This document shows, in pieces, positions 2,637-23,683 of a stretch of 24,000 nucleotides of DNA (positions within the stretch are counted from its first letter, which is position 1; each line of letters starts with the position of its first letter). The stretch lies in assembly GCA_003488005.1 (NCBI GenBank), contig DNND01000024.1:1-24000 (forward strand), read 5' to 3'. Under the pieces are notes generated by a model. It ran no database searches and was not told the DNA's origin. It was given only the letters and a program-made list of their open reading frames with translations. This DNA is from Blastocatellia bacterium. Lineage in GTDB: Bacteria; Acidobacteriota; Blastocatellia; Pyrinomonadales; Pyrinomonadaceae. Position numbers and translations under genes: made by a program.

Positions 2637-3835
2637 ACCTTTCCTCCATCTTTTCCCATGTCGCTCACAAACAACTTGTTCGCGTTGATCTTCCAAAATT
2701 GGGTTCAAACCAACACGAACTTAACGGTGTAACAGCACTCAAGGAATTCTTTGGATCTACAGAACCTTCACGCGGAAAGATAAGTTGGCATTACTTCGCT
2801 GACGATCAGGATCCGATCCAGGATGAGGGCGAGTTCACGTTCTACGATGCACGCGCCAAAAGCGCGGAAACCACTGGACGCAGCGAGTGGCGTTTTTACT
2901 ACTACGGGAATTTTCTCTCATGCGCGACGATAGGTGATTGGTTCTTTCTGGTGCGCTCCCAATCGGGACGCTTGTTCGGATTGGTGTTCCAGCAGGATTC
3001 AGCATGGCTTCGGGCAGCCCAAGCGTTGTTCGGAGTTGAAGCGTCGGATCCATCATTCTATCTGGTGACCCGCGAGATTCTCGACAACCAACAGGTTGAA
3101 TTACTTCGCCGACAAATTCTGACTGAACTCGACTTGGAAGTTACGCTTCCGGCACGTCCAAGCGATGAAGAGCTGATGCTTAAGAAATACAACCGAACGT
3201 TTCCAACAACTAAAGAGATGGCAGCGTTAGCGCGCTCCCAAGTAGAAGTAGACTTGCAAAAGCCCGACGAAGTGCTGGTTCGTTGGCTTGATAGAGAGGA
3301 AGAACTATTCAGGGCCTTGGAGAATGTCATTATCGGAGAACGCCTGAAGGCTGGGTTTGAATCAGTCGACGATTTCATTGCATATTCACTCTCCGTGCAA
3401 AACCGACGGAAATCCCGAATGGGCTTAGCTCTTCAAAACCACCTCGCCGAATTGTTTACCCAACAGGGCTTGAAATTCACCGCGCAGGCTCACACAGAAG
3501 CAAACAATCGACCCGATTTCATCTTTCCCGGCGAACGGCAATATCATGATGCAGCGTTCGAGGTAGCGCTGCTGGTAATGCTTGGCGTGAAGTCGACGAG
3601 TAAGGACCGATGGCGACAGGTTCTAACAGAGGCCGATAAAATCCGTCGAAAACATCTTTGCACGCTTGAACCGGGCATCTCGACTAAACAGACCGATGAG
3701 ATGGTCCGGCAAGAGTTGACGCTTGTTGTTCCCGCTACATTGCATGAAACCTATACTAGAGCTCAGCGCGAGTGGTTATTAAGTGTCGGGGCGTTTATCG
3801 AATTCGCACGTGGCAAACAGAGTCAGGAACCCTAA
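2633..3835 (+). CDS. Type II restriction endonuclease, EcoRII family (EcoRII-C catalytic domain)
   Basis: The C-terminal half aligns, from my memory of EcoRII, over GFESVDDFIAYSLSVQNRRKSRMG...NNRPDFIFPG...LGVKSTSKDRWRQVLTEADKI...LVVPATLHETY...LSVGAFIEF. Vsr and a C5-MTase are adjacent. The start overlaps the upstream stop (ATGA). Confidence 0.85.
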   Translation: MNLSSIFSHVAHKQLVRVDLPKLGSNQHELNGVTALKEFFGSTEPSRGKISWHYFADDQDPIQDEGEFTFYDARAKSAETTGRSEWRFYYYGNFLSCATIGDWFFLVRSQSGRLFGLVFQQDSAWLRAAQALFGVEASDPSFYLVTREILDNQQVELLRRQILTELDLEVTLPARPSDEELMLKKYNRTFPTTKEMAALARSQVEVDLQKPDEVLVRWLDREEELFRALENVIIGERLKAGFESVDDFIAYSLSVQNRRKSRMGLALQNHLAELFTQQGLKFTAQAHTEANNRPDFIFPGERQYHDAAFEVALLVMLGVKSTSKDRWRQVLTEADKIRRKHLCTLEPGISTKQTDEMVRQELTLVVPATLHETYTRAQREWLLSVGAFIEFARGKQSQEP

Positions 3836-3910
3836 ATAGGCCGCATCGAAACTACTCATTAACTACCGCTCACTATCTCGCCACTGAGTCATTAGAATAC
3901 CCCACAAAAA

Positions 3911-4318
3911 ATGGCAGACGTATTAACGCCAGCACAACGTAGCTTCAATATGTCGCGTATCAAGAATCGGAATACGCGGCCTGAGATGATCGTGCGCTCT
4001 ATTGTTCATCGGCTGGGTTATCGATATCGACTCCACAAGAAAAATCTTCCAGGCAAACCGGACGTGGTTCTTGTGCGCCATCGAAAGATCATCGATGTGC
4101 ATGGATGCTTCTTTCACATGCACACCTGCAAGTATGGGAAGGTAGTACCCGCGACGAACGCTGAGTTTTGGAAAGCAAAGCGGTTGTCGAACGTGGAGAG
4201 GGATCGTCGGAACTTGCGAGCATTGAAGCGGGAAGGTTGGCGCGTGATGACTGTCTGGGAATGCGAAACCAGAAACGCCAAACAGCTTGCAAAACGGCTG
4301 GAAAGATTTCTGAAATAG
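3911..4318 (+). CDS. vsr: Very short patch repair endonuclease
   Basis: MADV...RSFNMSRIK..NTRPE...LPGKPDVVL...IDVHGCFFH.H.C...PATNAEFW.AK...NVERDRRN...L...GWRV..VWECE is collinear with E. coli Vsr as I recall it. It lies next to a C5-MTase. Confidence 0.93.
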   Translation: MADVLTPAQRSFNMSRIKNRNTRPEMIVRSIVHRLGYRYRLHKKNLPGKPDVVLVRHRKIIDVHGCFFHMHTCKYGKVVPATNAEFWKAKRLSNVERDRRNLRALKREGWRVMTVWECETRNAKQLAKRLERFLK

Positions 4319-4327
4319 TAACGTCTC

Positions 4328-5338
4328 TTAGGCAGATGATGCATGAGAGAGAGATAGCTGCCGTGCTTTTCGGTATACCCGACGTGTCGATTTTTGTCCT
4401 TCGAATAGACACTTAACCATTTCGCCCGCTATGTGCTCGACCACAGGGACAACCACCGAATTACCAAACTGTTTGTATGCCCTGGTATCGCTAACTTCGA
4501 TTTGGAAATCCTCGGGAAATCCCATTAGCCTTGCGCATTCGCGGGGCGTTAAGCGGCGCGGGTTTTTACCCTTTTGTTGGATCAGTATTTCGCTACCGTC
4601 CTTGTAATAGCGTGCACTTAGCGTCCGTGCGATTCCTTTAGGATCAGTCAACCCGAAGCCAAACCCATTTCCTTTTGCGCGATGCTTATCAGCATAATCC
4701 CTAAGATATTTCCAGAGATGGTTAGTTAAGGTGTAACGATCCTCAACTTGGGGTTCAAGGATTTTCCCAAAGCGGGGTTTCAGGTCTGGGAGTTTTGGCA
4801 ACTGGAAGCTAACAGGGTCTCTGAAGCCAATTAAATATATTCGTTCCCTATGTTGAGGTACGACGGAACGTGCATCGAGCAGCTCAGGATACACGTGGTA
4901 GCCAAGTTCGTCTTCGAGAGTATGCAAGATAGTCTCATAAGTGTGCCCTGTGTCGTGTCTCATGAGGTTCTTTACGTTTTCAAGGAGGAAGGCTTTTGGC
5001 TTCTTTGCTTTGATGATCCGAGCCACGTCAAAAAACAAAGTGCCTTGTGTAGCATGTTCGAATCCATGGGCATTACCCAGGGCGTTGTTTTTTGTGACGC
5101 CGGCGATTGAGAACGGCTGGCATGGAAAGCCGGCAGTGAGAATGTCATGATCGGGAATGTCCTCTGCCTCTATCTTAGTGATATCCCCGGCGGGTTTTTC
5201 ATGAAAATTTGCTTCGTAGGTTTGGGTCGCATACTTGTCCCACTCGGAAGCGAATAAGCAAGTTCCTCCGACGTTCTGGAACGCTATTCGAAAGCCGCCA
5301 ATGCCGGCAAACAATTCAATGAAAGTAAACGAGGCCAT
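4328..5338 (-). CDS. dcm: DNA (cytosine-5)-methyltransferase
   Basis: All canonical C5-MTase motifs are present: FAGIGGF (I), GFPCQPFS (IV), ENVKNL (VI), [11 protein letters not shown] (VIII), [12 protein letters not shown] (IX), FGNSVVVPV (X). At 336 aa the target-recognition domain is short. Confidence 0.95.
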
Positions 5339-10290: not shown

Positions 10291-10734
10291 GTGATGGGAA
10301 AAATTAATTACGGACGCTTGATTGCCGGGGCGCTGTTGGCGGCGGTGTTTTATTTTATCGCTGATGGGTTTATTCATGGCGCACTGCTGGGGCATTACCA
10401 CATGGAGGCGATATCGAGGGCGGGGTACCCGCTCACGGCTGACAACACTTCGTTTATTTACTTCGGGCTTTTCGATTTGGGTAAGGGACTGGTCGTGATG
10501 CTGATCTATGTGGCGGCCCGTTCGCGGTTTGGGGCTGGGGCGAAGACCGCGGTGTGGGCCGGGTTGGTGGCGTGGCTCGCAATTGCAGTGCTGCCGTCCA
10601 TTGAGTGGATGCCGTTTCCTTTTTACGGGAAGAGCTTTTGGGTGAAGGTGATGGTGCTGGAAATTTTGCCGATGTTGGTTGGCTCGATACTCGGTGCGTG
10701 GGTTTATCGGGAGCCAAAGGCGGAAGAAAATTAG
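10291..10734 (+). CDS. Small integral membrane protein (about 4 TM helices)
   Basis: Hydrophobic segments LIAGALLAAVFYFIADGFI, IYFGLFDLGKGLVVMLIYV, AVWAGLVAWLAIAVL and VKVMVLEILPMLVGSILGAWV. SD AAAGGAG lies 7 nt before the ATG at 10294 (GTG at 10291 in the track). Confidence 0.75.
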   Translation: MMGKINYGRLIAGALLAAVFYFIADGFIHGALLGHYHMEAISRAGYPLTADNTSFIYFGLFDLGKGLVVMLIYVAARSRFGAGAKTAVWAGLVAWLAIAVLPSIEWMPFPFYGKSFWVKVMVLEILPMLVGSILGAWVYREPKAEEN

Positions 10735-10746
10735 CCGCGGATTTTC

Positions 10747-10840
10747 GCGGAGTGACGCGGATTCAGAACGCAGACGGCAGGAGCAGTAGGCAGCAGGCAG
10801 CAGGCAGCAGGCAGCAGGCAGCAGGCAGCAGGCAGACAGC
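10747..10840. repeat. Heptamer tandem array including 6 perfect AGCAGGC units
   Basis: GCGGATT CAGAACG CAGACGG CAGGAGC AGTAGGC (AGCAGGC)x6 AGACAGC, all in one 7-nt phase. It begins 13 nt after the membrane-protein stop codon. Confidence 0.9.
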
Positions 10841-10911
10841 GAAAAGCCCAAAACATTATCCGCAGATTACGCCGATTACAAAGATCCGCGATAAAACTTC
10901 TATTTGCATTT

Positions 10912-11065
10912 CGGCTGTGCCGTCTGATGTGCGGTGGCGGCTCCGCCCCACCGGAAATGTCGCTCGTTCTTTTTGGGGGCTACGCCCTGGAGTGGGCATA
11001 GCCCAAGATCTTTTTCAGTGGTTTCGGAAGGTCAAAGACCTTCCGCACATCAGACGGCACAGCCG
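10912..11065. mobile_element. MITE-like / structured palindromic element (family C) with perfect 23-bp terminal inverted repeats
   Basis: cggctgtgccgtctgatgtgcgg (10912-10934) is the exact reverse complement of 11043-11065. The 108-bp interior contains further hairpins (gggctacgccc..gggcatagccc; cggaaggtc-aaa-gaccttccg). No ORF. Confidence 0.6.
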
Positions 11066-11233: not shown

Positions 11234-11324
11234 GCAAGTAAATCGTGAATCGTAAATCGTGAATCGATCAGCAAGAAGCTGAGAGCTATCGGCTGTTAGC
11301 GTTCAGCAATCAGCCAGCAGGCCG
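11234..11324. repeat. Heptamer tandem array upstream of the BNR gene
   Basis: GCAAGTA AATCGTG AATCGTA AATCGTG AATCGAT CAGCAAG AAGCTGA GAGCTAT CGGCTGT TAGCGTT CAGCAAT CAGCCAG CAGGCCG, all in phase. The AATCGTG unit is the same as in the arrays at 1734-1747 and 23605-23678. Confidence 0.75.
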
Positions 11325-11367: not shown

Positions 11368-14300
11368 ATGCGCCGCTTTGTCATCGTTACTTCAAAACCG
11401 CGACGGTTCTTTTTTCAACTTGCTTCTCTTAGATCGGCTCTACTTCAAACTCCATTTCATCTGGCGCTCTTTCTTACCGTGACGCTTAGCCTGGCGGCGG
11501 TGTTATTCATGATGATGCCAAATTCTGCGTTCGCGCAGGAGGAGAAGCGCGCCGAACGCGAGGCGGCGCAGCGCGCCAAAGCGGAAGCCGCGGCCAAACA
11601 ACAGGCTTCGCCGGAAGCGAGCCCGCAATCGTCACCTGACGCTGCTGGAACAACGAAGGAGGAAAAGAAACCGGGCGAAGAAGACGACAACAAACCGAAG
11701 GACCCGATGGCTTCGGCGACATTCAATGGTTTGAAGTTTCGCGCCATTGGACCAGCATTCACTTCCGGTCGCGTAATCGGTTTCGCGATTGATCCAAATA
11801 ATGCCGCGCGCTACTTCGTCGCCTCCGCGTCGGGCGGCGTCTGGAAAACCATCAACAACGGCGCCACCTGGACGCCGGTGTTCGAGAAAGAAAGTTCTTA
11901 TTCCATCGGCGCGATCGCGCTCGATCCGAAAAATCCGCTGACCGTTTGGGTAGGCACGGGCGAGAACAACAGCCAGCGCAGCGTCTCGTACGGCAACGGC
12001 GTTTACCGTTCCGACGACGGCGGCAAGAGCTGGAAGAACATGGGGCTGAAGACTTCGGAACACATCGGCCGCATTGCGATCGATCCGCGAGATTCAGAAA
12101 CAGTATATGTTGCGGCGCAGGGACCGCTGTGGGGACCGGGCGGCGATCGCGGACTCTACAAGACAACTGACGGCGGTAAGAGCTGGAAAAAAATTCTTTC
12201 GATCAGCGACAACACCGGCGTCACTGAGATTGTTATCGACCAACAGAATCCTGACACGCTTTACGCGGCAGCCTATCAACGCCGCCGACACATGTGGACT
12301 TTGATTAACGGCGGACCGGAAAGTGCGATCTACAAATCAACCGACGCCGGCACGACCTGGAACAAGTTGAAAGCCGGATTGCCCACAACCGACTTAGGAC
12401 GCGTCGGTTTGGCGATTTCACCGGTTGATTCAAATGTGATTTACGCGACGGTGGAAGCGGCAGACAAAAAGGGCGGCATCTTTCGTTCAAGCGATCGCGG
12501 CGGCAGTTGGGAGCGCCGCAACGAGTTTGACGTGACCGCGATGTACTACGCGCGCATTGTTGCCGATCCGAAAATCGTGGATCGCCTTTACGTGATGAAT
12601 GTTTTTCTGATGGTGTCCGACGACGGCGGCAAAACTTTGCGACGGCTGGGCGAGAAATCAAAGCACGTCGACAACCACGACATCTGGATCGATCCCAACA
12701 ACAACGATCATTACCTGGTTGGCTGTGATGGCGGCGTCTATGAAAGCCTCGACCGCGGCGCGAACTGGGATTTCAAACGCAACCTGCCGATTACCCAGTT
12801 TTACGACGTGACGACAGACAATGCGACGCCGTTCTACAACGTCTTTGGTGGGGCGCAGGACAACTTTAGTGTCGGTGGTCCAGCGCGCACACGCAGCGCG
12901 TCAGGCATCACTAATGCGGATTGGTTTGTAACGTTGGGTGGCGATGGTTTTCGCACGCAAGTCGATCAGGAAGACCCAAACACAATCTATTCGGAGTATC
13001 AAAATGGCGGCCTGTCGCGTTTTGATAAGCGCACTGGCGAGCGCCTCGCGATTCAGCCGGCGCTCGGCCGCGGCGAAGATCCGCTGCGCTGGAACTGGGA
13101 CTCGCCTTTCATTCTCAGTCCGCACCTGCACACGCGCATCTACTTCGCCGCCGACAAACTTTTTCGCAGCGACGATCGCGGCGATAGCTGGACCGTAGTC
13201 AGCGGACAACTTTCGCGCGGGCTGGATCGCGACAAGCTGCCGGTGATGGGAAAAATCTGGGGCGTGGACGCGGTCGCGAAGAATGCGTCAACGGCGTTCT
13301 TTGGCAACGCTTCGGCGCTGGCTGAGTCGCCCAGGAAAGATGGGTTGATTTACGTCGGCACCGACGATGGTTTGATTCAGGTCACTGAAGACGGCGGCAA
13401 GAATTGGCGGCGGCTGGAAAAGTTTCCCGGCGTAGCCGATATGTCTTACGTGAGCCGCATTACCGCTTCGAATCACGGCGTGAACACTGTGTATGCCGCG
13501 TTTGACAATCATCAGAACGCAGACTTCAAACCGTATCTTTTGAAGAGCACGGACGCCGGGCGCAGCTGGATTTCCATTGCCGGCAACCTGCCCAAGAATG
13601 GACCAGTGTGGGCCATTGCGGAAGATCACGTGAATCCGAATCTGCTGTTTGCAGGCACTGAGTTTGGTTTGTACTTCTCGGTTGACGGTGGACAGAAATG
13701 GATTCAACTCAAGGGCGGCCTGCCGACGATCGCCGTGCGCGACATCAACATTCAGAAACGCGAAAACGATTTGGTGCTCGGCACGTTTGGCCGCGGCATT
13801 TACATTCTCGACGACTACACGCCGCTGCGATCACTGACGCCGGAGATGTTGAAGCAGGACGCGCTCACTTTTCCGGTCGAAGACGCGTTGATGTACATCC
13901 AGTCGCAGCCGTTGGGTGGTCGTGGCAAGAGTTTTCAGGGCGAATCTTTTTACACGGCTGAGAATCCGCCGTTCGGCGCGACTTTTACTTACTATTTGAA
14001 AGAAGAGTTGAAGACAGGCAAGGCCAGGCGTCAGGCGGCTGAAAAAGAAGCCGAGAAAAAAGGCGCGGTCGTCGTATTGCCGAACGCAGCGCAGCTAAGC
14101 GCGGAAGAAGAAGAAGAAGCGCCGGCGGTGATCATTACAATCAGCGATGCTGACGGCCAGGTGGTGCGGCGTCTGACTGGACCAGTGACGGCGGGCATGC
14201 AGCGCGTTTCGTGGGACCTTCGTTATCCGCCCGCGTCTTTGCCGCCGCCGCCAAATCCGGAAACAGAGAATCCGTTCGACGATCCGCCGGGTGGTCCATT

Positions 14301-14898
14301 GGTGATGCCGGGCAGCTACAAAGTTTCGTTTGCCCGGCGCGTTGCCGGAGTCATGACGCCGCTGGCGCAACCACAGGATTTTCGCATCGTGGTTGAAGGC
14401 CAGGAGAACATGACGCCGGCCGATCGCACGGCGCTGGTTGAGTTTCAGCGAAAGGCAGCAAGATTGCAGCGCGCGGTTAGTGGCGCGCTTGACGCTGCGA
14501 ATGCATTGAAGCCGCGGTTGGCACTGATAAAGCGCGCGCTGCTGGATACGCCGTCGGCGGGGGACCGCTTGTTGGACCAGGCCGCGGCGCTGGATAAACG
14601 CGCCAATGACATTCTGCGTTCACTGCGGGGCGACAACGCGCTGCGCGCGCGCAACATGAATGTGCCGCCGTCGATCGCGGATCGTGTTGGTGACATCGTT
14701 GGTTCGCAACGTACCTCGACGGCGCGGCCGACGCAGACGCAAATCAATCAATACAACTTGGCGGCGCAGGAGTTTGAGCAGACGCTCGCGCAACTGCGGC
14801 AACTAATTGAGGTGGATCTGGCGCGGTTGGAGAAAGAGATGGAAGCAGCCGGCGCGCCGTGGACGCCTGGTCGAGTGCCGGAGTGGCGGGACCAGTGA
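11368..14898 (+). CDS. Secreted BNR/Asp-box repeat protein (sortilin-Vps10 / GH74-like beta-propeller glycosidase family)
   Basis: At least 10 Asp-box motifs (SxDxGxxW): SDDGGKSW, TTDGGKSW, STDAGTTW, SSDRGGSW, SDDGGKTL, SLDRGANW, SDDRGDSW, TEDGGKNW, STDAGRSW, SVDGGQKW. N-terminal signal peptide ending AFA-QEE, then a low-complexity Ala/Glu/Pro linker. The C-terminus looks coiled-coil-like. Confidence 0.85.
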   Translation: MRRFVIVTSKPRRFFFQLASLRSALLQTPFHLALFLTVTLSLAAVLFMMMPNSAFAQEEKRAEREAAQRAKAEAAAKQQASPEASPQSSPDAAGTTKEEKKPGEEDDNKPKDPMASATFNGLKFRAIGPAFTSGRVIGFAIDPNNAARYFVASASGGVWKTINNGATWTPVFEKESSYSIGAIALDPKNPLTVWVGTGENNSQRSVSYGNGVYRSDDGGKSWKNMGLKTSEHIGRIAIDPRDSETVYVAAQGPLWGPGGDRGLYKTTDGGKSWKKILSISDNTGVTEIVIDQQNPDTLYAAAYQRRRHMWTLINGGPESAIYKSTDAGTTWNKLKAGLPTTDLGRVGLAISPVDSNVIYATVEAADKKGGIFRSSDRGGSWERRNEFDVTAMYYARIVADPKIVDRLYVMNVFLMVSDDGGKTLRRLGEKSKHVDNHDIWIDPNNNDHYLVGCDGGVYESLDRGANWDFKRNLPITQFYDVTTDNATPFYNVFGGAQDNFSVGGPARTRSASGITNADWFVTLGGDGFRTQVDQEDPNTIYSEYQNGGLSRFDKRTGERLAIQPALGRGEDPLRWNWDSPFILSPHLHTRIYFAADKLFRSDDRGDSWTVVSGQLSRGLDRDKLPVMGKIWGVDAVAKNASTAFFGNASALAESPRKDGLIYVGTDDGLIQVTEDGGKNWRRLEKFPGVADMSYVSRITASNHGVNTVYAAFDNHQNADFKPYLLKSTDAGRSWISIAGNLPKNGPVWAIAEDHVNPNLLFAGTEFGLYFSVDGGQKWIQLKGGLPTIAVRDINIQKRENDLVLGTFGRGIYILDDYTPLRSLTPEMLKQDALTFPVEDALMYIQSQPLGGRGKSFQGESFYTAENPPFGATFTYYLKEELKTGKARRQAAEKEAEKKGAVVVLPNAAQLSAEEEEEAPAVIITISDADGQVVRRLTGPVTAGMQRVSWDLRYPPASLPPPPNPETENPFDDPPGGPLVMPGSYKVSFARRVAGVMTPLAQPQDFRIVVEGQENMTPADRTALVEFQRKAARLQRAVSGALDAANALKPRLALIKRALLDTPSAGDRLLDQAAALDKRANDILRSLRGDNALRARNMNVPPSIADRVGDIVGSQRTSTARPTQTQINQYNLAAQEFEQTLAQLRQLIEVDLARLEKEMEAAGAPWTPGRVPEWRDQ

Positions 14899-15026
14899 GC
14901 AGGGAGCGGTGAGCAGAAGGCAGACGGCAGACGGCAGACGGCAGGAACCAAAAACAGCAGTGAGCGGCGAGCCGAGAGGAGCGCGCTGCCCACTGCGCAC
15001 TGCCCACAGCTCACCGCCCACTGATC
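14894..15026. repeat. 19 in-phase heptamers filling the whole convergent intergenic space; the two halves are inverted
   Basis: AGTGAGC AGGGAGC GGTGAGC AGAAGGC (AGACGGC)x3 AGGAACC AAAAACA GCAGTGA GCGGCGA GCCGAGA GGAGCGC GCTGCCC ACTGCGC ACTGCCC ACAGCTC ACCGCCC ACTGATC. The first unit holds the BNR gene stop (TGA 14896-14898). The right-hand units are reverse complements of GTGAGC/GGGCAGT-type units, giving an imperfect long hairpin that may act as a bidirectional terminator. Confidence 0.85.
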
Positions 15027-15029
15027 TCG

Positions 15030-16022
15030 TTAATTCCGGTGTGCGCCGATGCGTCTCTCCACCAGGCTCTCGACGTTAAGGGGCGCGCCGTCGGCTTTGG
15101 CTTTGCGAATAAAGTCGCTGTCGATCTTGAAGATTTTCATCTTCACCAACTCCTCCACCGAAGGGTTCGCAATTCCCTCGTTGCGGACTGAGGCGATGAA
15201 TTCCGGCGTCACTTTGAAAATGCGCATCTGCACCAGGTCTTCGAACGACTGATTCGCATAACCCAGCTGCATCACCTGCGTGACAAAGCCGGCATTGATT
15301 TTGAAGATGCGCGCTTTCACCAACTCCTCCATACCGAGGTTGGGGAAACCACTTGCCTTCATCTCACGCGCAAACTTTGAATCGACTTTGAAGATGGCCG
15401 CTTTGAAAAGATCGTCGACGTCGAGTTTGCCTAAACCTACTGCAAGCAGGTCGTCGGCCTGGGCAGTAGTTACGTTCAGGACTGCGGCCGAGAACAATTT
15501 GTTTTCGGAATCGCGCTCATCGCCCCAGGTTCTGTCGTTCCTTTCAAAGTCGAAGCCGCGGCTCTTCATTCCCGATATAAAACTTTGATTTGCAGTAAAG
15601 CGGAAAGTGCCAACGCCCTTGCTGTTTTGAAAAGTTCCTTCGCAAACAACCGTGCCGGCTTCGCGCACCAGACTGAATTTGACCGGGCCGCCGCGCTCCA
15701 CTTGCTCACGCGTCAGACCTTGCAACTCGGAAAACGAATAGGTCTGGCCCATCTGGCTATGATGGCCATTCCTGGTTGGCCGCTCGAAGTTGAGATAAAT
15801 CCGGTCGCCCTTTACTTGCGCCTCAGACTCCTGATCGTCTGCGATCGTTTCCGGTTCATTAGATTTTTGCCGGTGCACTGACTTGGATTTTTCTCCACCG
15901 AGCGAGGCAGTCCAGTCGCCCGTCACTTCAGTTTGTGCGGCGGCAGCGTTACAACCGACGATGAAAACGAGAACAGCCAGACTAACAACCGAGCGCATTA
16001 GTAAATTCAAAATCTTTGACAT
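15030..16022 (-). CDS. Lipoprotein with about five tandem ~29-aa helical repeats (xELVKxRIFKvxxxFxxxxxxxG)
   Basis: Signal/lipobox MSKILNLLMRSVVSLAVLVFIVGC. C-terminal repeats: DDLFKAAIFKVDSKFAREMKASGF / EELVKARIFKINAGFVTQVMQLGY / EDLVQMRIFKVTPEFIASVRNEGI / EELVKMKIFKIDSDFIRKAKADGA. GAGG lies upstream of the ATG. Confidence 0.8.
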   Translation of the reverse strand: MSKILNLLMRSVVSLAVLVFIVGCNAAAAQTEVTGDWTASLGGEKSKSVHRQKSNEPETIADDQESEAQVKGDRIYLNFERPTRNGHHSQMGQTYSFSELQGLTREQVERGGPVKFSLVREAGTVVCEGTFQNSKGVGTFRFTANQSFISGMKSRGFDFERNDRTWGDERDSENKLFSAAVLNVTTAQADDLLAVGLGKLDVDDLFKAAIFKVDSKFAREMKASGFPNLGMEELVKARIFKINAGFVTQVMQLGYANQSFEDLVQMRIFKVTPEFIASVRNEGIANPSVEELVKMKIFKIDSDFIRKAKADGAPLNVESLVERRIGAHRN

Positions 16023-16156: not shown

Positions 16157-16249
16157 AATCGTAAAGCAAACTGTTAGTTTGCGGGGGCACCTGGCCATTC
16201 AAGTTGAGGCTGGCAGAACGACCGCAAGCTAACAGTTTGCTTTACGATT
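16157..16249. repeat. Palindromic element family B (28-bp arms, 37-nt loop)
   Basis: aatcgtaaagcaaactgttagtttgcgg (16157-16184) pairs with ccgcaagctaacagtttgctttacgatt (16222-16249), 27 of 28 complementary. Confidence 0.8.
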
Positions 16250-16252
16250 GGG

Positions 16253-16420
16253 CGCCTCGGTGGCATGAAGTCAGTAACTGCCTGGGGTAGCGAGTGGGTC
16301 TGAACTCTTCATTGCCAGATATCGATCGTCAGTTGGCCGCTCGTCAGCGGATGATGGGCAATTTTGCAATACGAAGAATCCACCCGCTGCCGCAGGCGGT
16401 ACTGACTTCATGCCACGGCG
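16253..16420. repeat. Inverted pair of REP-like family A cores (BIME/MITE-like)
   Basis: Left arm ggtggcatgaagtcagtaactgcctggggtagcgagtgggt. Right arm atccacccgctgccgcaggcggtactgacttcatgccacggcg. They are reverse complements with a few mismatches. The ~77-nt spacer contains the hairpin ccgct-cgtc-agcgg. Confidence 0.8.
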
Positions 16421-17930: not shown

Positions 17931-18614
17931 TTACCAGTCTTCTTTGGCGATGTAGTTGAGAACGGATTTGATTGAGGCGACGGCGTAGCTGCCGTCGCTT
18001 TTTCTTACGGGCAAATGACGATAGCGGCCTACTGACATCCTGTTTAGGGCCTCGGCCACGGAGTCTTTTTCGTGAAGCGTCTCAGGGTTGCCGCTCATCA
18101 GTTGTGCAATGGGCACCTCAAAGCCGGGAGGGACCCGAACGCCGGTGGCCACATTAGTCTCTTGAATTTGGGCAAATTCCATTTCGTCGGCGCGCAGCTC
18201 TTCGAGGGGAATTTCGGTGGCTGGGATTTGATTCGCGGGAAGCTCGTCGGGAAACGCTGTTCGCGCGTTGCGCTCATTTGCGGGCGAGACGCCCGCGATC
18301 CCAGTACCAGAAGTCAGGCGCAGCAGCACGTCGTGTTCGGTAAAGATGCCGACGAGCTTGCCGCCGTCGACTATCAACGCGCAACCGGTGTTGGCGTGCT
18401 TCATTTGGCGCGTAACATCGCTGGCCAACGTATTTGGCGCCACACAGACCGGCGGCTCGTATTCCAGCCGGCCCAAATTATCTTCCATTACGGATTGCGC
18501 AAAACTTTCGGAAGCCTCGATGCTGGGAATGTCGAGTTGGCGAAACGGTGCCAGACAATTTTCGCAACGGTCAATGCCGTCAATGTTTTCGTGGCCACAG
18601 GAAGGACAGTTCAT
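17931..18614 (-). CDS. Zinc-ribbon plus CBS-domain protein
   Basis: N-terminal CPSCGHENIDGIDRCENC (CxxC...CxxC). CBS-type segments LVGIFTEHDVLLRL and HLPVRKSDGSYAVASIKSVLNYI. Confidence 0.85.
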   Translation of the reverse strand: MNCPSCGHENIDGIDRCENCLAPFRQLDIPSIEASESFAQSVMEDNLGRLEYEPPVCVAPNTLASDVTRQMKHANTGCALIVDGGKLVGIFTEHDVLLRLTSGTGIAGVSPANERNARTAFPDELPANQIPATEIPLEELRADEMEFAQIQETNVATGVRVPPGFEVPIAQLMSGNPETLHEKDSVAEALNRMSVGRYRHLPVRKSDGSYAVASIKSVLNYIAKEDW

Positions 18615-18615
18615 A

Positions 18616-19008
18616 TCAATGGTGAAGTGCGGAATGCGGAGTGCGGATTGGTGCTAATTTATTTTGACGTGCTGTTCTGATTGAAGCGACAGTAATTGCG
18701 ACAATCTGATGTACCTCATCCAACAGATCGTCAACACGAGCCTTTTCGATCAAACCAGAATCCACGAGTAATTCTATCCAATAGATTATTTCGTCAGCCT
18801 CTTCTTCAACTATACCCATTTTGGCAATGAAGTCGGCCCGCGATTTAGCCCGGCATGAGGCCCTGTAGTTTGCGCCAACCGAAGTTCCGCAGCGCAACAG
18901 TTGTTTGCTGATTACATCGCATGCCTTACCAGAGGGAAGGGACTCAACGAGTCGAATGATTCTAAGAGCGAGTGCTCTCGTTCGCTGTTTCATCTCATCA
19001 GAGTTCAT
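18616..19008 (-). CDS. Four-helix-bundle protein (23S rRNA intervening-sequence protein family, PF05635-like)
   Basis: ALRIIRLVESLPSGKACDVISKQLLRCGTSVGANYRASCRAKSRADFIAKMGIVEEEADEIIYWIELL matches the family pattern. The ATG at 19008 (MNSDEMKQ) is preferred, because the track start at 19062 overlaps korB and reads through a heptamer array. The last ~12 codons are also encoded by a heptamer array. Confidence 0.85.
   Translation of the reverse strand: MNSDEMKQRTRALALRIIRLVESLPSGKACDVISKQLLRCGTSVGANYRASCRAKSRADFIAKMGIVEEEADEIIYWIELLVDSGLIEKARVDDLLDEVHQIVAITVASIRTARQNKLAPIRTPHSALHH
18622..18656. repeat. Heptamer array forming the left inverted repeat of the four-helix cassette
   Basis: GTGAAGT GCGGAAT GCGGAGT GCGGATT GGTGCTA. 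Confidence 0.85.
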
Positions 19009-19016
19009 TTGCTTGA

Positions 19017-19051
19017 AATCCGCAATCCGAAATCCGCATTCCGCAATTACT
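19017..19051. repeat. Heptamer array forming the right inverted repeat of the four-helix cassette
   Basis: AATCCGC AATCCGA AATCCGC ATTCCGC AATTACT. The reverse complement matches 18629-18649 at 19 of 21 positions. The korB stop codon (TAA 19047-19049, minus strand) lies in the last unit. Confidence 0.85.
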
Positions 19052-20168
19052 GCACGACCCAAGTATCGCCGCTGTTGATTAGTTTTTCCAAACTGCCTGG
19101 GCCAACTTTGGCAATCGCAGCCTCGATTTGATCGACCATCAACTCTTCATAGCTTGGCCGTTCGACGGCGCGAAAGATGCCGACCGGCTGCGGAAAGTCC
19201 GGCTGCTCCATGCGTGCCAGCATGAAAGCCACGGAAGGGTCTTGCAAATAGATGTCATGGACCAGCAGATCGTCTTCATTGATGCCGTTCTCGCCAATAG
19301 TCACCACTTCCGGATGCGCGCCGTTCATGCGAATGCCTTTGTTCCGATCCTTACCGTAAATCATCGGCTTGCCGTGTTCGAGATAAAGCACGCGATCGGT
19401 GCGCACGCTGCGTTCGGCAAATGAATCGAACGCATGATCGTTAAAGATGTTGCAGTTTTGATAGACCTCGATGAAAGAGATGCCCTTGTGTTTTGCCGCC
19501 GCCTCAACCACGGTGCCAAGATGTTTGACATCAATATCGATTGAGCGCGCCACAAAGGTCGATTCGCTGGCGATGGCCAGGGAAAGCGGATTGATAGGAT
19601 AGTCAACTGCCCCCATCGGACTCGACTTCGTTTTCTTGCCAAACTCGGAAGTCGGACTGTACTGGCCCTTAGTCAAACCATAGATGCGGTTGTTGAAAAG
19701 TATGTAATTGATGTCGAGGTTGCGGCGAATGGCGTGCATGAAATGGTTGCCGCCAATAGAAAGCGCATCGCCGTCGCCGGTGATTACCCAGACGCTCAAG
19801 TCGGGGTTCGCACACTTAATGCCGGTGGCAACCGCCGGGGCGCGGCCATGAATCGAGTGAAAGCCATAAGTGTTCATGTAATAAGGAAAGCGCGAAGAGC
19901 AACCGATGCCGGAAACGAAAACGATCTTTTCGCGCGGCACGCCGAGTTCGGGCATGACTTTCTGCACGTTGTTGAGGATTGCGTAATCGCCGCAGCCAGG
20001 GCACCAGCGCACTTCCTGATCGGAAACGAAGTCAGACTTTTTCAGTTGTCCCGGCGGCGGCGCAATCTTTCCTGATACCGCAGACCCGCCTTCGCTCTCG
20101 GCAGAGATGCTGGCTTCGACCGGCGTCGTGTTGCCGTTGCCACTAAGACCATTTCCGTTTGTGCTCAT
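19047..20168 (-). CDS. korB: 2-oxoglutarate:ferredoxin (2-oxoacid:acceptor) oxidoreductase, beta subunit
   Basis: RWCPGCGDYAIL, the TPP-binding region VITGDGDALSIGGNH, and YILFNNRIYGLTKGQ. The ATG at 20168 (MSTNGNG) with AGGAG upstream is preferred; the track start at 20288 overlaps the Uma2 gene. Confidence 0.92.
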   Translation of the reverse strand: MSTNGNGLSGNGNTTPVEASISAESEGGSAVSGKIAPPPGQLKKSDFVSDQEVRWCPGCGDYAILNNVQKVMPELGVPREKIVFVSGIGCSSRFPYYMNTYGFHSIHGRAPAVATGIKCANPDLSVWVITGDGDALSIGGNHFMHAIRRNLDINYILFNNRIYGLTKGQYSPTSEFGKKTKSSPMGAVDYPINPLSLAIASESTFVARSIDIDVKHLGTVVEAAAKHKGISFIEVYQNCNIFNDHAFDSFAERSVRTDRVLYLEHGKPMIYGKDRNKGIRMNGAHPEVVTIGENGINEDDLLVHDIYLQDPSVAFMLARMEQPDFPQPVGIFRAVERPSYEELMVDQIEAAIAKVGPGSLEKLINSGDTWVVQ

Positions 20169-20196: not shown

Positions 20197-20748
20197 CTAA
20201 GCAAATATTTCTTCGATTTGTATCCGGAAACCTGGCAAAACATCTCCACCATCGAGCAGATCGTTTTCGGTAAACGCGGAAATATCATTTAACGAGCGGT
20301 AAACGGTCACGCTGCGCATGCTTGGACTAACGACCCACACCTGTTGGGTTCCAGCAGCCAACCACTCTGAAACCTTTTCTTCGACTTCGCCGACGGTGTC
20401 GTTCGGACTTAATACTTCCACGGCAAGATCGGGCGGGCCGGGCCAGTAACCTTTGGTTTTCCCAATCTCGTCAACTCGTTTTCGACGAACAAATGCGATG
20501 TCTGGTGCACGCACCGTATCGGGATTGGAACTGAGCTTGAAACCAGTTTCGGCTGCGTATACTTCTCCCAAATTATGTTTTTGCACATGCAGCGCAAGGG
20601 GCAGGGTTAGACGAATTATGATCCTGCCATGATTATGTCCCGCTGGTGACATCTTCTTTAGTTCTCCATTGACGAGTTCGTAACGAAACTCGCCTCGAGG
20701 TAAAGCCAGAAGCTCATCAGCGGTCATGAGTTGTACTTCGGTGCTCAT
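20197..20748 (-). CDS. Uma2 family (DUF820) restriction-endonuclease-fold protein
   Basis: MTADELLALP..FRYELVNGEL..MSPAGHNHGRI...APDIAFV......PPDLAVEVLSPND...KV.EWL.AG....WVV.P is the typical Uma2 pattern with a PD...(D/E)xL core. ATG at 20748. Confidence 0.85.
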   Translation of the reverse strand: MSTEVQLMTADELLALPRGEFRYELVNGELKKMSPAGHNHGRIIIRLTLPLALHVQKHNLGEVYAAETGFKLSSNPDTVRAPDIAFVRRKRVDEIGKTKGYWPGPPDLAVEVLSPNDTVGEVEEKVSEWLAAGTQQVWVVSPSMRSVTVYRSLNDISAFTENDLLDGGDVLPGFRIQIEEIFA

Positions 20749-20801
20749 ATTTCTTGAACGTACACCTCGCGGGGTAGGGTAACCCGCAATCATTCATCAA
20801 C

Positions 20802-21440
20802 TTAATCTTTCGGATTTTGCTTGACTGCGTCGTACAAGTCTAAAAACTTTGCCCTCACGTACGGGTCAAGTTGTTCGGCGAATTCAGCCGTCAATGCGCG
20901 AACCTTGATCAATTCCTGCACGTCGGCCAGATCTTTCAACCGGTCTGGCGCGGTCATGCCGGAAGCGAGTTTCAGTTCTATTAATTTCTCAAGCGTGACG
21001 AAACGCACGCCATCGATCTCAACAGCACCAGTCTGCGGGTCGGGCACGCTAACCGGTTTTGGTTTGCCGTCGCCGGGATATTCACCAGTCGTGATTACGT
21101 TAATCATGACACCCTGCTGAACAGACCGCACGCTTTTGTTAGAGCCGAAAACTGGATCGTAATTAGATAATGTTAGGGGCGCTTTTCCGCCGACAGGAGT
21201 GACGAATCGGTTTAATCCTTCAGCGGTCAACACAATATCGATGTTGTCAGTGACGCGTCGGAGGCCATGGGCGAACAATGCGACACCTCCAATCACGACA
21301 TAGTCGATGGCATGACTTTTCAAATCTGCCACTAGTTGCTCGAGAGTAATATGAAGGGGGCCCGTTCCCGCGAGGTATTGACATGCTTCGTCATAAGCTT
21401 CAGAAACAGATAGCGTAGATTTAGCTGCGGTAATCGTCAT
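20802..21440 (-). CDS. Nucleotidyltransferase-fold protein (minimal NTase, AbiEii/MNT-like)
   Basis: YVVIGGVALFAHGLRRVTDNIDIVL fits the GG-x-A...G-x-R-x-T-x-D-I-D NTase pattern. The C-terminal KDLADVQELI is typical of this group. The start is ATG at 21440 or TTG at 21458. Confidence 0.6.
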   Translation of the reverse strand: MTITAAKSTLSVSEAYDEACQYLAGTGPLHITLEQLVADLKSHAIDYVVIGGVALFAHGLRRVTDNIDIVLTAEGLNRFVTPVGGKAPLTLSNYDPVFGSNKSVRSVQQGVMINVITTGEYPGDGKPKPVSVPDPQTGAVEIDGVRFVTLEKLIELKLASGMTAPDRLKDLADVQELIKVRALTAEFAEQLDPYVRAKFLDLYDAVKQNPKD

Positions 21441-21480
21441 GAATGTTGTTTCGACCAACTGAAGGAACCTTTGATCAAGC

Positions 21481-21675
21481 TCTTCGACGCGTAGCGTCGG
21501 TAGAGTTTAGCCCGGCGTTTCAACGCCGGGTTCAATTCGAAATGTGTCCCCCGTCGCGTAGCGATGGCCGATAATACCGCTGATTTCGGGCGTCGCTACG
21601 CGACGCGAACGCCTCGTTGACTGCTCCCGGCCTTGAAAGGCCGGGCTAAATTCTACCGACGCTACGCGTCGAAGA
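21481..21675. mobile_element. Nested palindromic element (family D): ~35-bp outer inverted repeats enclosing three hairpins
   Basis: Outer arms tcttcgacgcgtagcgtcggtagagtttagcccgg and ccgggctaaattctaccgacgctacgcgtcgaaga. Inner hairpins: cccggcg-tttcaa-cgccggg (21511-21530), cgtcgcgtagcga...tcgctacgcgacg (21552-21605) and cccggcc-ttgaaa-ggccggg (21626-21645). Confidence 0.7.
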
Positions 21676-21709
21676 AATTAATCAGAGCTTCCTGAAGATT
21701 GCCGGACAT

Positions 21710-23572
21710 TTACAAATACTCTTCAACCTTGCGAACGATCTCGCGAATCTGGAACGGACGGCCTTTGACTTTCGAGAAGGCAATCGCATCAACCAGGTAC
21801 TTCGCACGAATCATGGTACACAGTTGGCCCAGGTTCATCTCCGGCACGATCACCGTTTCAAAACCGGCAAGCACTTCGCCCAAGTTCTTCGGGAATGGGT
21901 TCAAATAGCGCAAGTGTGCCGCGGAAACGCTCTTACCTTCGCTCTGAAGTTTCTCGACGGCCGTGCTAATCGAGCCATAAGTCGAACCCCAGCCCAGCAC
22001 CAGCACCTTGCCCGTCTTTTCTCCGAACACTTCGACGACCGGAATGTCATTGGCAACTCGATCGATTTTTTCCTGGCGCAGCTTGACCATCAGATGATGG
22101 TTTTCCGGGTCGTAGTTCACGTTGCCGGTGATGTGTTGTTTCTCGATGCCGCCGATGCGATGCTCGAGTCCCGGCGTTCCGGGAATTGCATAGGGCCGCG
22201 CCAGCGTTTCCGGATCGCGCGAGTAGGGCATGAAGTTCGCCGGATCGGACGCAAACTTAACTTCGATCTTCGGCAGGTCGCTGATTTCCGGAATGGCCCA
22301 CGGCTCGGCGCCATTCGCGAGATAACCATCAGATAGGTAAAAGACCGGGCTCATGTATTTGAACGCGAGACGCACTGCTTCAATTGCCATTGCGAAGCAG
22401 TCGGCCGGCGTCTGCGGCGCAATCACGATAGCGGGACATTCGCCGTTGCGTCCCCAGACTGCCTGGAAAAGATCAGCCTGCTCAGTTTTTGTCGGCAAGC
22501 CGGTTGATGGACCACCGCGCTGCACGTTGATAATGACCAACGGCAACTCAGTCATCACTGCTAAACCAATCGCTTCCTGTTTGAGAGCGACTCCGGGACC
22601 GGATGTTCCAGTCAAGCCAATTTGCCCGGCAAAGCTGGCGCCGATGGCTGCGCAAACCGCTGCGATTTCATCTTCCGCCTGAAAAGTTTTCACACCAAAA
22701 CTTTTGTGGCGTGCCAACTCATGCAGAATGTCCGAAGCTGGAGTGATCGGATACGAACCGTAGAACAGCGGGCGATTCGCGAGTTGTGACGCCGCAACAA
22801 AACCGATAGCAGTTGCTTCGTTGCCGGTAATTTTCCGGTACTTGCCGGGCGCAATCTTCGCCTTCTTGATCGTGTAATGCGTGGTAAAGATTTCGGTCGT
22901 GTCGGCAAAGTTGTAGCCGGTGCGCAACGCGATTTCGTTAGCTTTTGCGAGTTCCGGGTTCTTGCCAAATTTGCTGGTGATCCAGTGGAGCGTGTTCTCC
23001 ATCGGCCGGTCGTAAAGCCAATAGAGCACGCCGAGCGCGAAAAAGTTTTTGGAACGATCAATCTCTTTGCGCGAAAGGGTGACGTTGCCTTTAAGCGCAT
23101 TCATGTTGAGCGTGGTCACCGGTAACTTGTGCACGCGATAGCCGGCGAGAGAGCCATCTTCCAATGGATTGGAAGCATAGTTTGCATACTTCAGGTTCTC
23201 AGGCGTAAAGCCGTCAGTATTAATAATGAGCGTGCCGCCTTCTTCGAGGTCGGGCAGATTCACTTTCAAGGCTGCCGGGTTCATCGCCACCAAAACGCTC
23301 GGCTGATCGCCCGGCGTTTTGATGTCCTGGCTCGAGAAGTTCAACTGAAAACCGCTGACGCCGGGCAAGCTACCCGCAGGCGCGCGAATCTCGGCAGGGA
23401 AATCAGGCAACGTCGAGATATCGTTACCGACAACCGCCGACGTGTTTGTAAATTGGGTGCCCGTTAACTGCATGCCGTCGCCAGAGTCGCCGGCAAAGCG
23501 GATGGTAACGGCTTCGACTTCCTCGAGATTCTTTACCGTGTGTTCTACCGGGGGTTCGATAACAGTGCTCAT
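21710..23572 (-). CDS. korA: 2-oxoglutarate:ferredoxin (2-oxoacid:acceptor) oxidoreductase, alpha subunit
   Basis: 620 aa. The N-terminal gamma-like domain ([15 protein letters not shown]) is fused to the alpha domains ([29 protein letters not shown]), typical of KorA. The partner korB lies downstream on the same strand. Confidence 0.92.
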
Positions 23573-23604: not shown

Positions 23605-23678
23605 CGTAAATCGTCAATCGTAAATCGTGAATAGAAAAAGCGTACTGACTATTTACGATTCACGATTCACGATTCACG
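23605..23678. repeat. Inverted heptamer arrays forming a 28-bp-arm hairpin
   Basis: CGTAAAT CGTCAAT CGTAAAT CGTGAAT (23605-23632), an 18-nt loop, then ATTTACG ATTCACG ATTCACG ATTCACG (23651-23678). 24 of 28 positions are complementary. It lies between the CBS gene stop (23684) and the korA start (23572). Confidence 0.85.
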
Positions 23679-23683
23679 AAGGT

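Follow-up and report, generated by a model that had tools for sequence, protein, structure and literature searches.

The spacer between two convergent genes at positions 14893-15026 of contig DNND01000024.1, which comes from a Blastocatellia bacterium and was analysed over its first 24,000 nucleotides (hereafter the window), is one instance of a lineage-specific repeat system in Pyrinomonadaceae, in which arrays of tandem heptamers stand between genes. Two features of this system had escaped a preliminary description of the window: inverted pairing of the arrays is a general rule and not a peculiarity of the focal spacer, and the hairpins formed by the pairs are anchored to stop codons. We put at roughly 55% the probability that these elements are transcript hairpins resembling both the short tandemly repeated repetitive (STRR) sequences of cyanobacteria and the intervening sequences (IVSs) of ribosomal RNA (rRNA), that they are reshaped by slippage in 7-nt steps, and that they are probably processed by RNase III or stabilise mRNA 3' ends.

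The focal spacer consists of three parts:
14893-14944: left half, arrays CAGTGAG × 3.4 and GCAGACG × 4.6, called by Tandem Repeats Finder; lag-7 identity 0.82.
14945-14985: weakly periodic middle, with an A-rich stretch and a small inner hairpin; lag-7 identity 0.56.
14986-15026: right half, array CTGCCCA × 5.4, called by Tandem Repeats Finder and found as an inverted repeat; lag-7 identity 0.74.

The left half starts within the stop codon of a BNR/sortilin-like gene (11368-14898, + strand), and the right half finishes 3 nt short of the stop codon of the convergent gene for a 330-aa protein (15030-16022, − strand), with the focal hairpin (14897-15026) filling the gap between the two stop codons. 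Over the whole spacer the lag-7 identity is 0.67, compared with 0.18-0.35 at the other lags from 3 to 12. The right half is indeed the inverse complement of the left, as had been proposed: the arms 14897-14937 and 14986-15026 are 41 nt long and 73% complementary. The spacer had also been read as 19 heptamers in a single phase, which is an overstatement: in the middle 41 nt periodicity is only weak and a copy of AGTGAGC lies 2 nt off the phase of the left array. The inner hairpin of this middle part (AGTGAGCGGCGAGC.../...GCGCTGCCCACTGC; phase shift 2 nt) appears in the minimum-energy fold. The spacer as a whole folds with -61.9 kcal/mol on the + strand (z -3.5) and -72.7 kcal/mol on the − strand (z -4.3). 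No orthologue of the spacer between the BNR gene and the 330-aa gene was present among the fetched loci, in which this synteny is not conserved.

To place the spacer in its lineage, we sampled ~20 kb around the orthologous 2-oxoacid:ferredoxin oxidoreductase alpha gene (protein, POR-alpha) in 80 species-representative genomes and 80 metagenome contigs, which provided ~1.1 Mb of Pyrinomonadaceae-related DNA in total, from 80 related loci; outgroup genome loci came from other Blastocatellia, Terriglobia and eight other phyla. Arrays were detected with Tandem Repeats Finder at period 7 and by sliding autocorrelation on 35-nt windows (lags 1-24), and the chance expectation was taken from 100 dinucleotide-preserving shuffles of the window. 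The POR-alpha of the window shares 91-97% identity with its homologues in metagenome-assembled genomes (MAGs) of Pyrinomonadaceae (Acidobacteriota, Blastocatellia), bearing out the suggestion that the host belongs to a phylum other than the cyanobacteria. The nearest genomes are thus those of Pyrinomonadaceae and not of a heterocystous cyanobacterium, the host of the STRR class.

Period-7 arrays occupy 9.24 nt/kb in Pyrinomonadaceae-like genome loci (523 kb) and 0.26 nt/kb in outgroup genome loci (725 kb). A consistent difference was seen in the metagenome set, with 5.9 nt/kb in loci at >=83% identity (570 kb) and 0.9-1.2 nt/kb in loci at lower identity (312 kb). The preliminary description had staked its reading on an excess of period-7 repeats outside the window; since two independent sets of related loci carry this excess (9.24 and 5.9 versus 0.26-1.2 nt/kb), it is not refuted on this count. 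Among periods 5-12 in the related loci, period 7 dominates, and periods 8 and 9 form minor classes. In the genome and metagenome sets 84-86% of array bases lie outside called genes, and arrays were found in 24% of co-directional spacers, in keeping with the intergenic and often intra-operon location of STRRs. Arrays make up 12-13% of the non-coding bases of the window and 6.3% of the non-coding DNA of related genomes, against 0.04% in outgroups; to call them the dominant building block of intergenic DNA, as had been done, was therefore an overstatement. An assembly artefact, the other alternative raised earlier, is excluded: the window sequence was recovered at 100% identity in an independent Logan assembly of another run (a 41.6-kb soil-metagenome contig), and comparable arrays are present in dozens of independent MAGs. 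We found no earlier report of heptamer hairpins in Acidobacteria or Pyrinomonadaceae in the searchable literature, which omits most subscription journals.

Inverted pairing was evident throughout this sample. A reverse-complement partner lies within 400 nt of 102-124 of 153 arrays, whereas the reversed-only and complement-only controls gave 0-18. Adjacent array pairs carry inverse-complementary units in 64 of 82 cases (78%) and same-strand units in none, which answers the earlier call for an inverted-pair frequency. The two arms are symmetric in copy number (4.3 versus 4.35, median difference 0.45 unit) and ~30 nt long (10th-90th percentile 24-38 nt), with gaps mainly of 15-90 nt between them. 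Because the two arrays are inverse-complementary, the DNA can fold into a long hairpin with almost perfect pairing, and so can any RNA transcribed from it. Across 91 hairpins in co-directional spacers, stems have a median of 29 bp and loops a median of 21 nt, and the folding energy averages -44.8 kcal/mol.

These 91 hairpins also have a defined position. Their median start is 4 nt past the stop codon of the upstream gene, with an interquartile range from -5 to +10, and they end a median of 22 nt ahead of the next open reading frame (ORF), typically just ahead of its ribosome-binding site. In 80 of the 91 the hairpin is closer to the stop than to the next start, and where the spacer leaves more than 80 nt free, the ratio is 16 to 3. 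Arrays were found in 115 of 480 co-directional, 16 of 82 convergent and 8 of 99 divergent spacers (genome and metagenome sets together); divergent spacers are the longest yet array-poor (Fisher p = 0.0008, genome set). The comparison of 3' with 5' gene ends that had been proposed thus comes out in favour of 3' ends, through both the anchoring to stop codons and the depletion from divergent spacers. Stop triplets are not enriched in stop-proximal units relative to shuffled units (46% versus 43±4%), although their rate is twice that of the complementary strand (23%).

Within the window, Tandem Repeats Finder called 14 period-7 arrays of 2.9-7.6 copies each, while the 100 shuffles yielded 10 comparable arrays altogether (0.1 per shuffle). 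Of the lags from 1 to 24, only 7, its multiples (14 and 21) and 15 give strongly periodic 35-nt windows; the lag-15 signal matches a separate period-15 array at 2106-2187. The claim of STRR-like tandem heptamers in intergenic DNA is therefore upheld by repeat calls, autocorrelation and shuffles alike. Long simple-sequence repeats with units of 5-11 nt are over-represented in many bacteria (Mrázek et al. 2007, as described in PMC4679880). The window arrays likewise exceed chance (14 versus 0.1 per shuffle). The calls are at 1518-1547, 1554-1578, 1574-1605, 1791-1821 and 1829-1855; 10783-10835 and 11241-11266; 14893-14916, 14913-14944 and 14986-15023; and 18628-18647, 19017-19047, 23605-23632 and 23651-23679. 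Every locus listed in the preliminary description thus holds a period-7 array, but no periodicity is detectable over parts of 1734-1859, 10747-10782 and 11267-11324. The sharing of unit families between loci was confirmed for AGTGAGC (at 1518 and 14893), AATCGTG/CACGATT (at 11241, 23605 and 23651) and GCGGAAT/ATTCCGC (at 18628 and 19017).

Besides the focal spacer and a gene-enclosing pair taken up below, the window contains the following arrays, all called by Tandem Repeats Finder:
1518-1605, + strand: three abutting arrays, AGTGAGC × 4.3, GAGTGAT × 3.6 and TGAGTAC × 4.6.
1734-1855, + strand: ATTCACG × 2, then GCTGTTT × 4.4 and TTTACCA × 3.9, upstream of a methyltransferase gene.
10783-10835, + strand: GGCAGCA × 7.6, the longest and cleanest array of the window (97% matches).
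11241-11266, + strand: AATCGTG/AATCGTA × 3.7, solo, no hairpin (z -0.6).
23605-23679, − strand: hairpin of (CGTGAAT/CGTAAAT) × 4 and (ATTCACG/ATTTACG) × 4, with two pairing registers.

The hairpin at 23605-23679 lies between a CBS-domain gene (23684-24205, − strand) and the oxidoreductase alpha gene (21710-23572, − strand), and its sense strand folds with -38.8 kcal/mol (z -6.0). Three loci of the window are solo: 1518-1605, 10783-10835 and 11241-11266. The first begins at the stop codon of a cytochrome-c gene, lacks a clear inverted partner and folds weakly (z -2.2); the second lies downstream of a 146-aa gene (10294-10734), with degenerate inverted segments of the GCGGATT type on either side (10747-10763 and 10861-10895); the third is ~100 nt upstream of the start of the BNR gene. 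No hairpin was found at 1734-1855 (fold z -0.06), and the methyltransferase gene there probably has its true start at 1860, where an alternative start codon is present.

The arrays previously listed separately as 18622-18656 and 19017-19051 pair with each other in one stem around a PF05635 gene, a relation that had been missed:
19017-19048, − strand: 5' arm, (TTGCGGA/TTTCGGA) × 4.4, called by Tandem Repeats Finder and as an inverted repeat; arm family present in 7 other loci.
18616-19008, − strand: gene for a PF05635 (23S_rRNA_IVP) four-helix-bundle protein, from the Pfam tag in the gene calls.
18625-18650, − strand: 3' arm, (AATCCGC/ACTCCGC) × 2.9, called as an inverted repeat and paired in minimum-energy and centroid folds.

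The 5' arm directly follows the oxidoreductase beta stop codon (gene at 19047-20168, − strand), and the 3' arm ends ~10 nt ahead of the next CBS-domain gene (17931-18614, − strand). The stem 18625-18650/19023-19048 has 26-nt arms that are 88% complementary and 372 nt apart, and it closes in both the minimum-energy and the centroid fold. The last ~12 codons of the gene run into the 3' arm. The protein has at least 7,987 homologues at E<=1e-10, typically of 118 aa and named "four helix bundle protein". All eight distinct PF05635 loci compared (the window and seven further Pyrinomonadaceae, four of these at the oxidoreductase beta/CBS site and three at the ybaB/recR site) carry the same hairpin family, (TTGCGGA)n...(AATCCGC)n, with flanks of (GATTGCG/GATTTCG) × ~4.6 and (AATCCGC) × ~4.6. 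From the stop codon of the upstream gene (TGA/TAA-TTGCGGAWTKCGG...) the family extends to a terminal ...AATCCGMAATCCGCAATC. In one of these loci, L166, the terminal stem comprises 33 bp (z -7.65); in relatives of the window locus the arms measure 32-33 nt. Two other loci, L006 and L025, hold the same hairpin family at the same site without the gene. A jackhmmer search of the 160 oxidoreductase-centred loci for more PF05635 genes found only the window copy and that of L026, and target-site duplications were not evident at the cassette ends.

The retroelement accessory protein Avd likewise belongs to PF05635 (PMC10053308). A published parallel to the gene-bearing locus of the window is the IVS of Coxiella burnetii, which contains an S23p (PF05635-type) ORF and a terminal stem of 28 bp, carries tandem heptamers in numbers that differ from strain to strain, and is excised by RNase III cutting at the first repeat (PMC4990558); IVSs were characterised there as selfish elements of unknown origin. 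The locus at 18616-19048 likewise combines a PF05635/S23p four-helix-bundle protein in the loop with a long terminal inverted-repeat stem around the ORF (~28-33 bp across the two systems) and with heptamers, which stand in tandem at the 5' end in Coxiella, whereas here both arms consist wholly of them. Unlike IVSs of 23S rRNA, which are inserted in helix 25 or 45, the present elements lie between protein-coding genes of mRNA operons (oxidoreductase beta/CBS and ybaB/recR for the gene-bearing family), most of them have no ORF, and RNase III cleavage is proposed for them by analogy.

We also considered whether a cargo gene with its own arms exists at nifU-nifS, on the same contig past the window end. 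There, an 11-unit CGTGAAT/CGTAAAT array and a 3-4-unit inverse array (window-equivalent 26244-26626; L004 6947-7329) flank a conserved ORF of 77 aa, which is predicted to have two membrane helices and has 8 homologues at 60-90% identity. The same array-ORF arrangement recurs at the orthologous nifU-nifS site of L174, and no arrays flank the homologues that lie in two other gene contexts; the extension to this ORF was rejected on the latter ground. Likewise, inverted arrays that appeared to enclose genes in L011 and L019 turned out to be neighbouring hairpins of one family and not gene-spanning stems.

The sequence of the units is far less constant than their arrangement. Among 151 arrays there are ~100 canonical unit types, the commonest of which, AGGGATG, occurs only 10 times, and the shared motif is weak (xCGATTx / AATCGx, 4.7 bits versus 3.4-3.9 bits for shuffled units). 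This is unlike the few fixed units of STRRs (STRR1-3, ~100 repeats each per genome). Of the 31 related loci examined, most carry a heptamer hairpin in the spacer between the CBS gene and the oxidoreductase alpha gene; these hairpins are built from at least three mutually unalignable unit families (GTAAATC/GATTTAC, CGATTKC/GMAATCG and GATTTTT/AAAAATC), and the adjoining ribosome-binding region stays conserved. At the spacer between oxidoreductase beta and CBS the hairpin is likewise kept and the unit family changed. A single alignment of all orthologous spacers was dropped, since MAFFT placed the 3' arm of one family on the 5' arm of another; alignments within families yielded one consensus hairpin with 28 pairs and another with 15. 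Two sites of the same locus have identical units in 11% of pairs and two sites of different loci in 2%, and 29% of neighbouring sites match within one mismatch. Strain-level polymorphism of unit number was not seen, as the other contigs with window proteins (L002, L003 and L005) are 100% identical; in the next-closest relatives, ~95% identical, the arrays already differ. One arm asymmetry was observed (L086, ~7 versus ~2.5 units). This pattern fits in-place slippage in 7-nt steps with arms kept complementary, plus some copying between sites.

Two further arrangements were noted among the relatives. In L009 (9885-10000) and L018 (9888-10000), the spacer between CBS and oxidoreductase alpha holds three alternating arrays of CGATTK-, AAATCGT- and ATTTACC-type, the middle one of which could pair with either neighbour; loss of the first or the last array would leave the two hairpin families of other species. 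Inverted arrays of 8-nt units occur in L011 (20388-20623), L089 and L027, and in L011 ACGGAGAC × 11.9 faces GTCTCCGT × 10.4 in arms of ~90 nt. The tandem-repeat hairpin design is therefore not strictly bound to 7 nt.

How might such elements arise and act? Judging from the pattern of turnover, units would be gained, lost and replaced in 7-nt steps through replication slippage, and the complementarity of the arms would be kept by selection for pairing or by template switching between them. Slippage with kept complementarity would lead orthologous spacers to retain a hairpin while its sequence turns over, and a genome to reuse few unit families. Once transcribed, the double-stranded stem between cistrons or at a 3' end may be cut by RNase III, may block 3' exonucleases, or both, which would uncouple or stabilise the flanking mRNAs and would differ from canonical intrinsic termination. 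Given the RNase III-type stems, the family enclosing PF05635 and the likeness to the Coxiella IVS, action is most likely on the transcript. Of the functions suggested in the preliminary description, RNA-processing stems combined with slippage appear to be the best candidate.

Several observations weigh against this transcript-level reading. A test for RNA-level selection in the 91 oriented hairpins counted 112 G·U against 140 A·C pairs on the sense strand (p = 0.09), which is the wrong direction, and the sense strand is more stable than the antisense in 46 hairpins and less stable in 45. The G·U result fits symmetry at the DNA level, or very weak selection per base pair in ~30-bp stems. Compensatory covariation is modest (3 of 28 and 5 of 15 pairs in the within-family alignments), ~20-30% of arrays are solo and unpaired, and the reading does not account for the 7-nt step, beside which periods of 8 and 9 also occur. 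The small ORF with two transmembrane helices in the NifU-NifS loop indicates that arms and cargo gene do not always go together. Finally, arrays are almost absent from some Pyrinomonadaceae sublineages (~90% POR-alpha identity), where no other hairpin has taken their place; the hairpins are thus dispensable.

The absence of a G·U excess, the equal folding of both strands and the existence of hairpin-free sublineages make a neutral slippage-plus-palindrome origin a serious rival, even if we hold it to be unlikely. The arrays would then be functionless by-products of slippage-prone heptanucleotide repeats, with hairpins arising by inverted duplication or template switching and persisting as compact paired spacers that are tolerated. 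The ~100 unit types with only a weak common motif, the rapid turnover between 95%-identical species, the patchy distribution and the additional periods of 8 and 9 are all consistent with such an origin, and slippage is the explanation given for comparable repeats in PMC4679880 and PMC4692102. It accounts less readily for the narrow and symmetric arm length (24-38 nt), for a placement that is aware of gene orientation (median 4 nt past the stop, 16 versus 3 in roomy spacers), for the depletion of arrays from divergent spacers though these are longer, and for arms of constant length and sequence around PF05635 genes at two unrelated sites.

That last observation, the same arms and gene at two operon sites in different genomes, is what one would expect of mobile selfish hairpins (MITE-, REP- or IVS-like) that spread to post-stop sites, with PF05635 copies as the full-length elements, ORF-less ones as derivatives and slippage as a secondary process. 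One site does hold the same hairpin family with and without the gene, unit families are shared ~5 times more often within than between loci with 29% of neighbouring sites matching, and IVSs have been described as selfish elements (PMC4990558). We nevertheless find this account doubtful. Loops are not conserved among copies of one family, PF05635 proteins have no known recombinase activity and no target-site duplication is evident at the cassette ends; no transposase or RAYT gene was noticed beside the arrays, though no systematic search was made. The occupation of the same orthologous spacers across many species fits vertical descent with turnover in place. A related and similarly doubtful proposal is that the heptamer hairpins are genome-wide IVS-type elements that colonised post-stop-codon positions of mRNA operons, the PF05635 (Avd-like) copies being full-length and the ORF-less ones derivatives or relatives. 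The neutral and the mobile explanations concern origin more than action; they are compatible with processed, slippage-reshaped transcript hairpins and the readings are not mutually exclusive.

Terminators were among the functions first suggested. Intrinsic (Rho-independent) terminators, acting bidirectionally in the focal convergent spacer, would be in line with strong hairpins right after stop codons and with a focal hairpin that fills the gap between convergent ones. This is very improbable. Such terminators have a short GC-rich stem-loop followed by a U-tract, whereas stems of ~30 bp with loops of ~21 nt are atypical and U-tracts are lacking after the 91 stems (mean 3.0 T in the next 10 nt; at least 6 T in only 5 of 91). 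A consensus terminator scan of the window called none of the heptamer hairpins, with a total count equal to the shuffle expectation, yet it detected a canonical GC-stem-plus-T-run terminator at 17921-17904. Moreover, most hairpins lie within conserved operons (oxidoreductase alpha/beta, nifU/nifS, ybaB/recR). Least probable of all is that the arrays are binding sites for a protein, for example of the cold-shock OB-fold type with one molecule per heptamer, that recognises single-stranded nucleic acid (RNA or DNA) or duplex DNA with a 7-nt step: CspB binding to heptamer repeats is discussed in PMC4679880 and the weak xCGATTx / AATCGx motif would suit it, but unit sequences are highly diverse, most arrays would be locked in duplex stems, periods 8 and 9 also occur and no candidate protein was identified.

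The system may be set beside other intergenic repeats. REP/BIME, ERIC and Correia/NEMIS elements form co-transcribed hairpins at gene 3' ends or between cistrons, stabilise the upstream mRNA or are cut by RNase III, and belong to species-specific families. REP/BIME-type palindromes have one consensus per family, many near-identical copies and no tandem sub-repeats, and REPs depend on RAYT transposases. The present hairpins resemble REP/BIME in their location at gene 3' ends and between cistrons, and differ from them in being built from tandem sub-repeats; in the ~20 kb sampled per genome, unit families are shared within loci (11% versus 2% between loci), but loops differ.

STRR heptanucleotide repeats were reportedly described from heterocystous cyanobacteria by Mazel and colleagues in 1990. 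Known in cyanobacteria since then, they have served for strain fingerprinting, and to our knowledge no function has been established. In the present system the host is an acidobacterium, ~100 unit types take the place of few genome-wide consensus heptamers, the units are neither G-rich nor quadruplex-forming, and inverted pairs with ~30-nt arms anchored to stop codons are the rule; for STRRs, we found no quantification of inverted pairing, arm length or stop anchoring in the searchable literature. Like STRRs and the heptamers of Nostoc and Xanthomonas (PMC4692102, PMC2408588), the elements are 7-nt tandem units in intergenic spacers of co-transcribed operons, sometimes in inverted pairs, and the Nostoc unit ATTGCGA resembles the ATTGCGG/ATTGCCG families found here. 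The turnover closely echoes that of Xanthomonas and Nostoc, where heptamers at the same intergenic positions vary extensively in length and sequence (PMC4692102). The TAACTGA repeats of marine Beggiatoaceae are also abundant, intergenic and lineage-restricted, and a post-transcriptional role was proposed for them (PMC4679880). They consist, however, of a single unit mostly just upstream of start codons, in 169 direct-repeat sets versus one inverted, whereas here many units lie just downstream of stop codons and are mostly inverted. Taken together, the system is neither STRR proper, having no fixed consensus units and no cyanobacterial host, nor IVS proper, as it lies outside rRNA.

The intergenic DNA of this organism is generally rich in hairpin-forming elements of several kinds. 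An Rfam scan of the window found no known RNA family at the arrays and no rRNA, its sole matches being two inverted Acido-Lenti-1 motifs (RF01687) elsewhere, at 21485-21530 (− strand) and 21626-21671 (+ strand), with 45.7 and 43.8 bits (gathering score 37). They lie within a large inverted repeat (21452-21704; 79-nt arms, 84% complementary) between the oxidoreductase alpha gene and a 212-aa gene, and similar segments occur in L008, L116 and L119. Two inserted genes at 20197-21440 part oxidoreductase alpha from beta, one for a Uma2-family endonuclease and the other for this 212-aa protein, which has a faint DUF2204/nucleotidyltransferase (AbiEii-like) match; relatives have one, both or neither insert. 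Non-heptamer long inverted repeats were seen in the two longest spacers, at 10912-11065, 16157-16249 and 16260-16416, with arms of 23 nt (100% complementary), 28 nt (96%) and 17 nt (100%). A second dispersed repeat, also not heptameric, is the 32-38-nt AATGAGGTCAGTACCGCCTGCGGTAGCGGGTGGGTT at 29-66, 105-142, 1650-1681 and 16374-16411 (− strand); it takes part in a 76-nt tandem duplication near the window start and has a 24-26-nt match in L017. Two ORF starts from mechanical calling, 29 and 1650, fall within or at the edge of it and are probably spurious. Finally, a restriction-modification island at 2633-5338 comprises an EcoRII-C-domain endonuclease (2633-3835), a Vsr very-short-patch repair endonuclease (3911-4318) and a C-5 cytosine methyltransferase (4328-5338, − strand), with coding-potential scores below those of the surrounding genes.

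What is new here is the abundance of STRR-type heptamers in a soil acidobacterial family, together with quantitative rules for them (inverted pairs, ~30-nt arms, a start ~4 nt past the stop codon and depletion from divergent spacers) and the link of one hairpin family to the IVS gene family at two sites outside rRNA. In practice, the hairpins will mislead gene callers, as ORFs run into the arrays (for example in the C-terminal tails of the PF05635 protein and NifU), and they also break short-read assemblies. RNase III processing of the intercistronic stems is a concrete and cheaply testable hypothesis, for which orthologous spacers with different stems provide a natural series. Should the heptamer hairpins prove to be genome-wide IVS-type elements, STRR-type heptamers and rRNA IVSs would be two forms of a single class of hairpins that evolve by slippage and are processed by RNase III, which would give both an origin.

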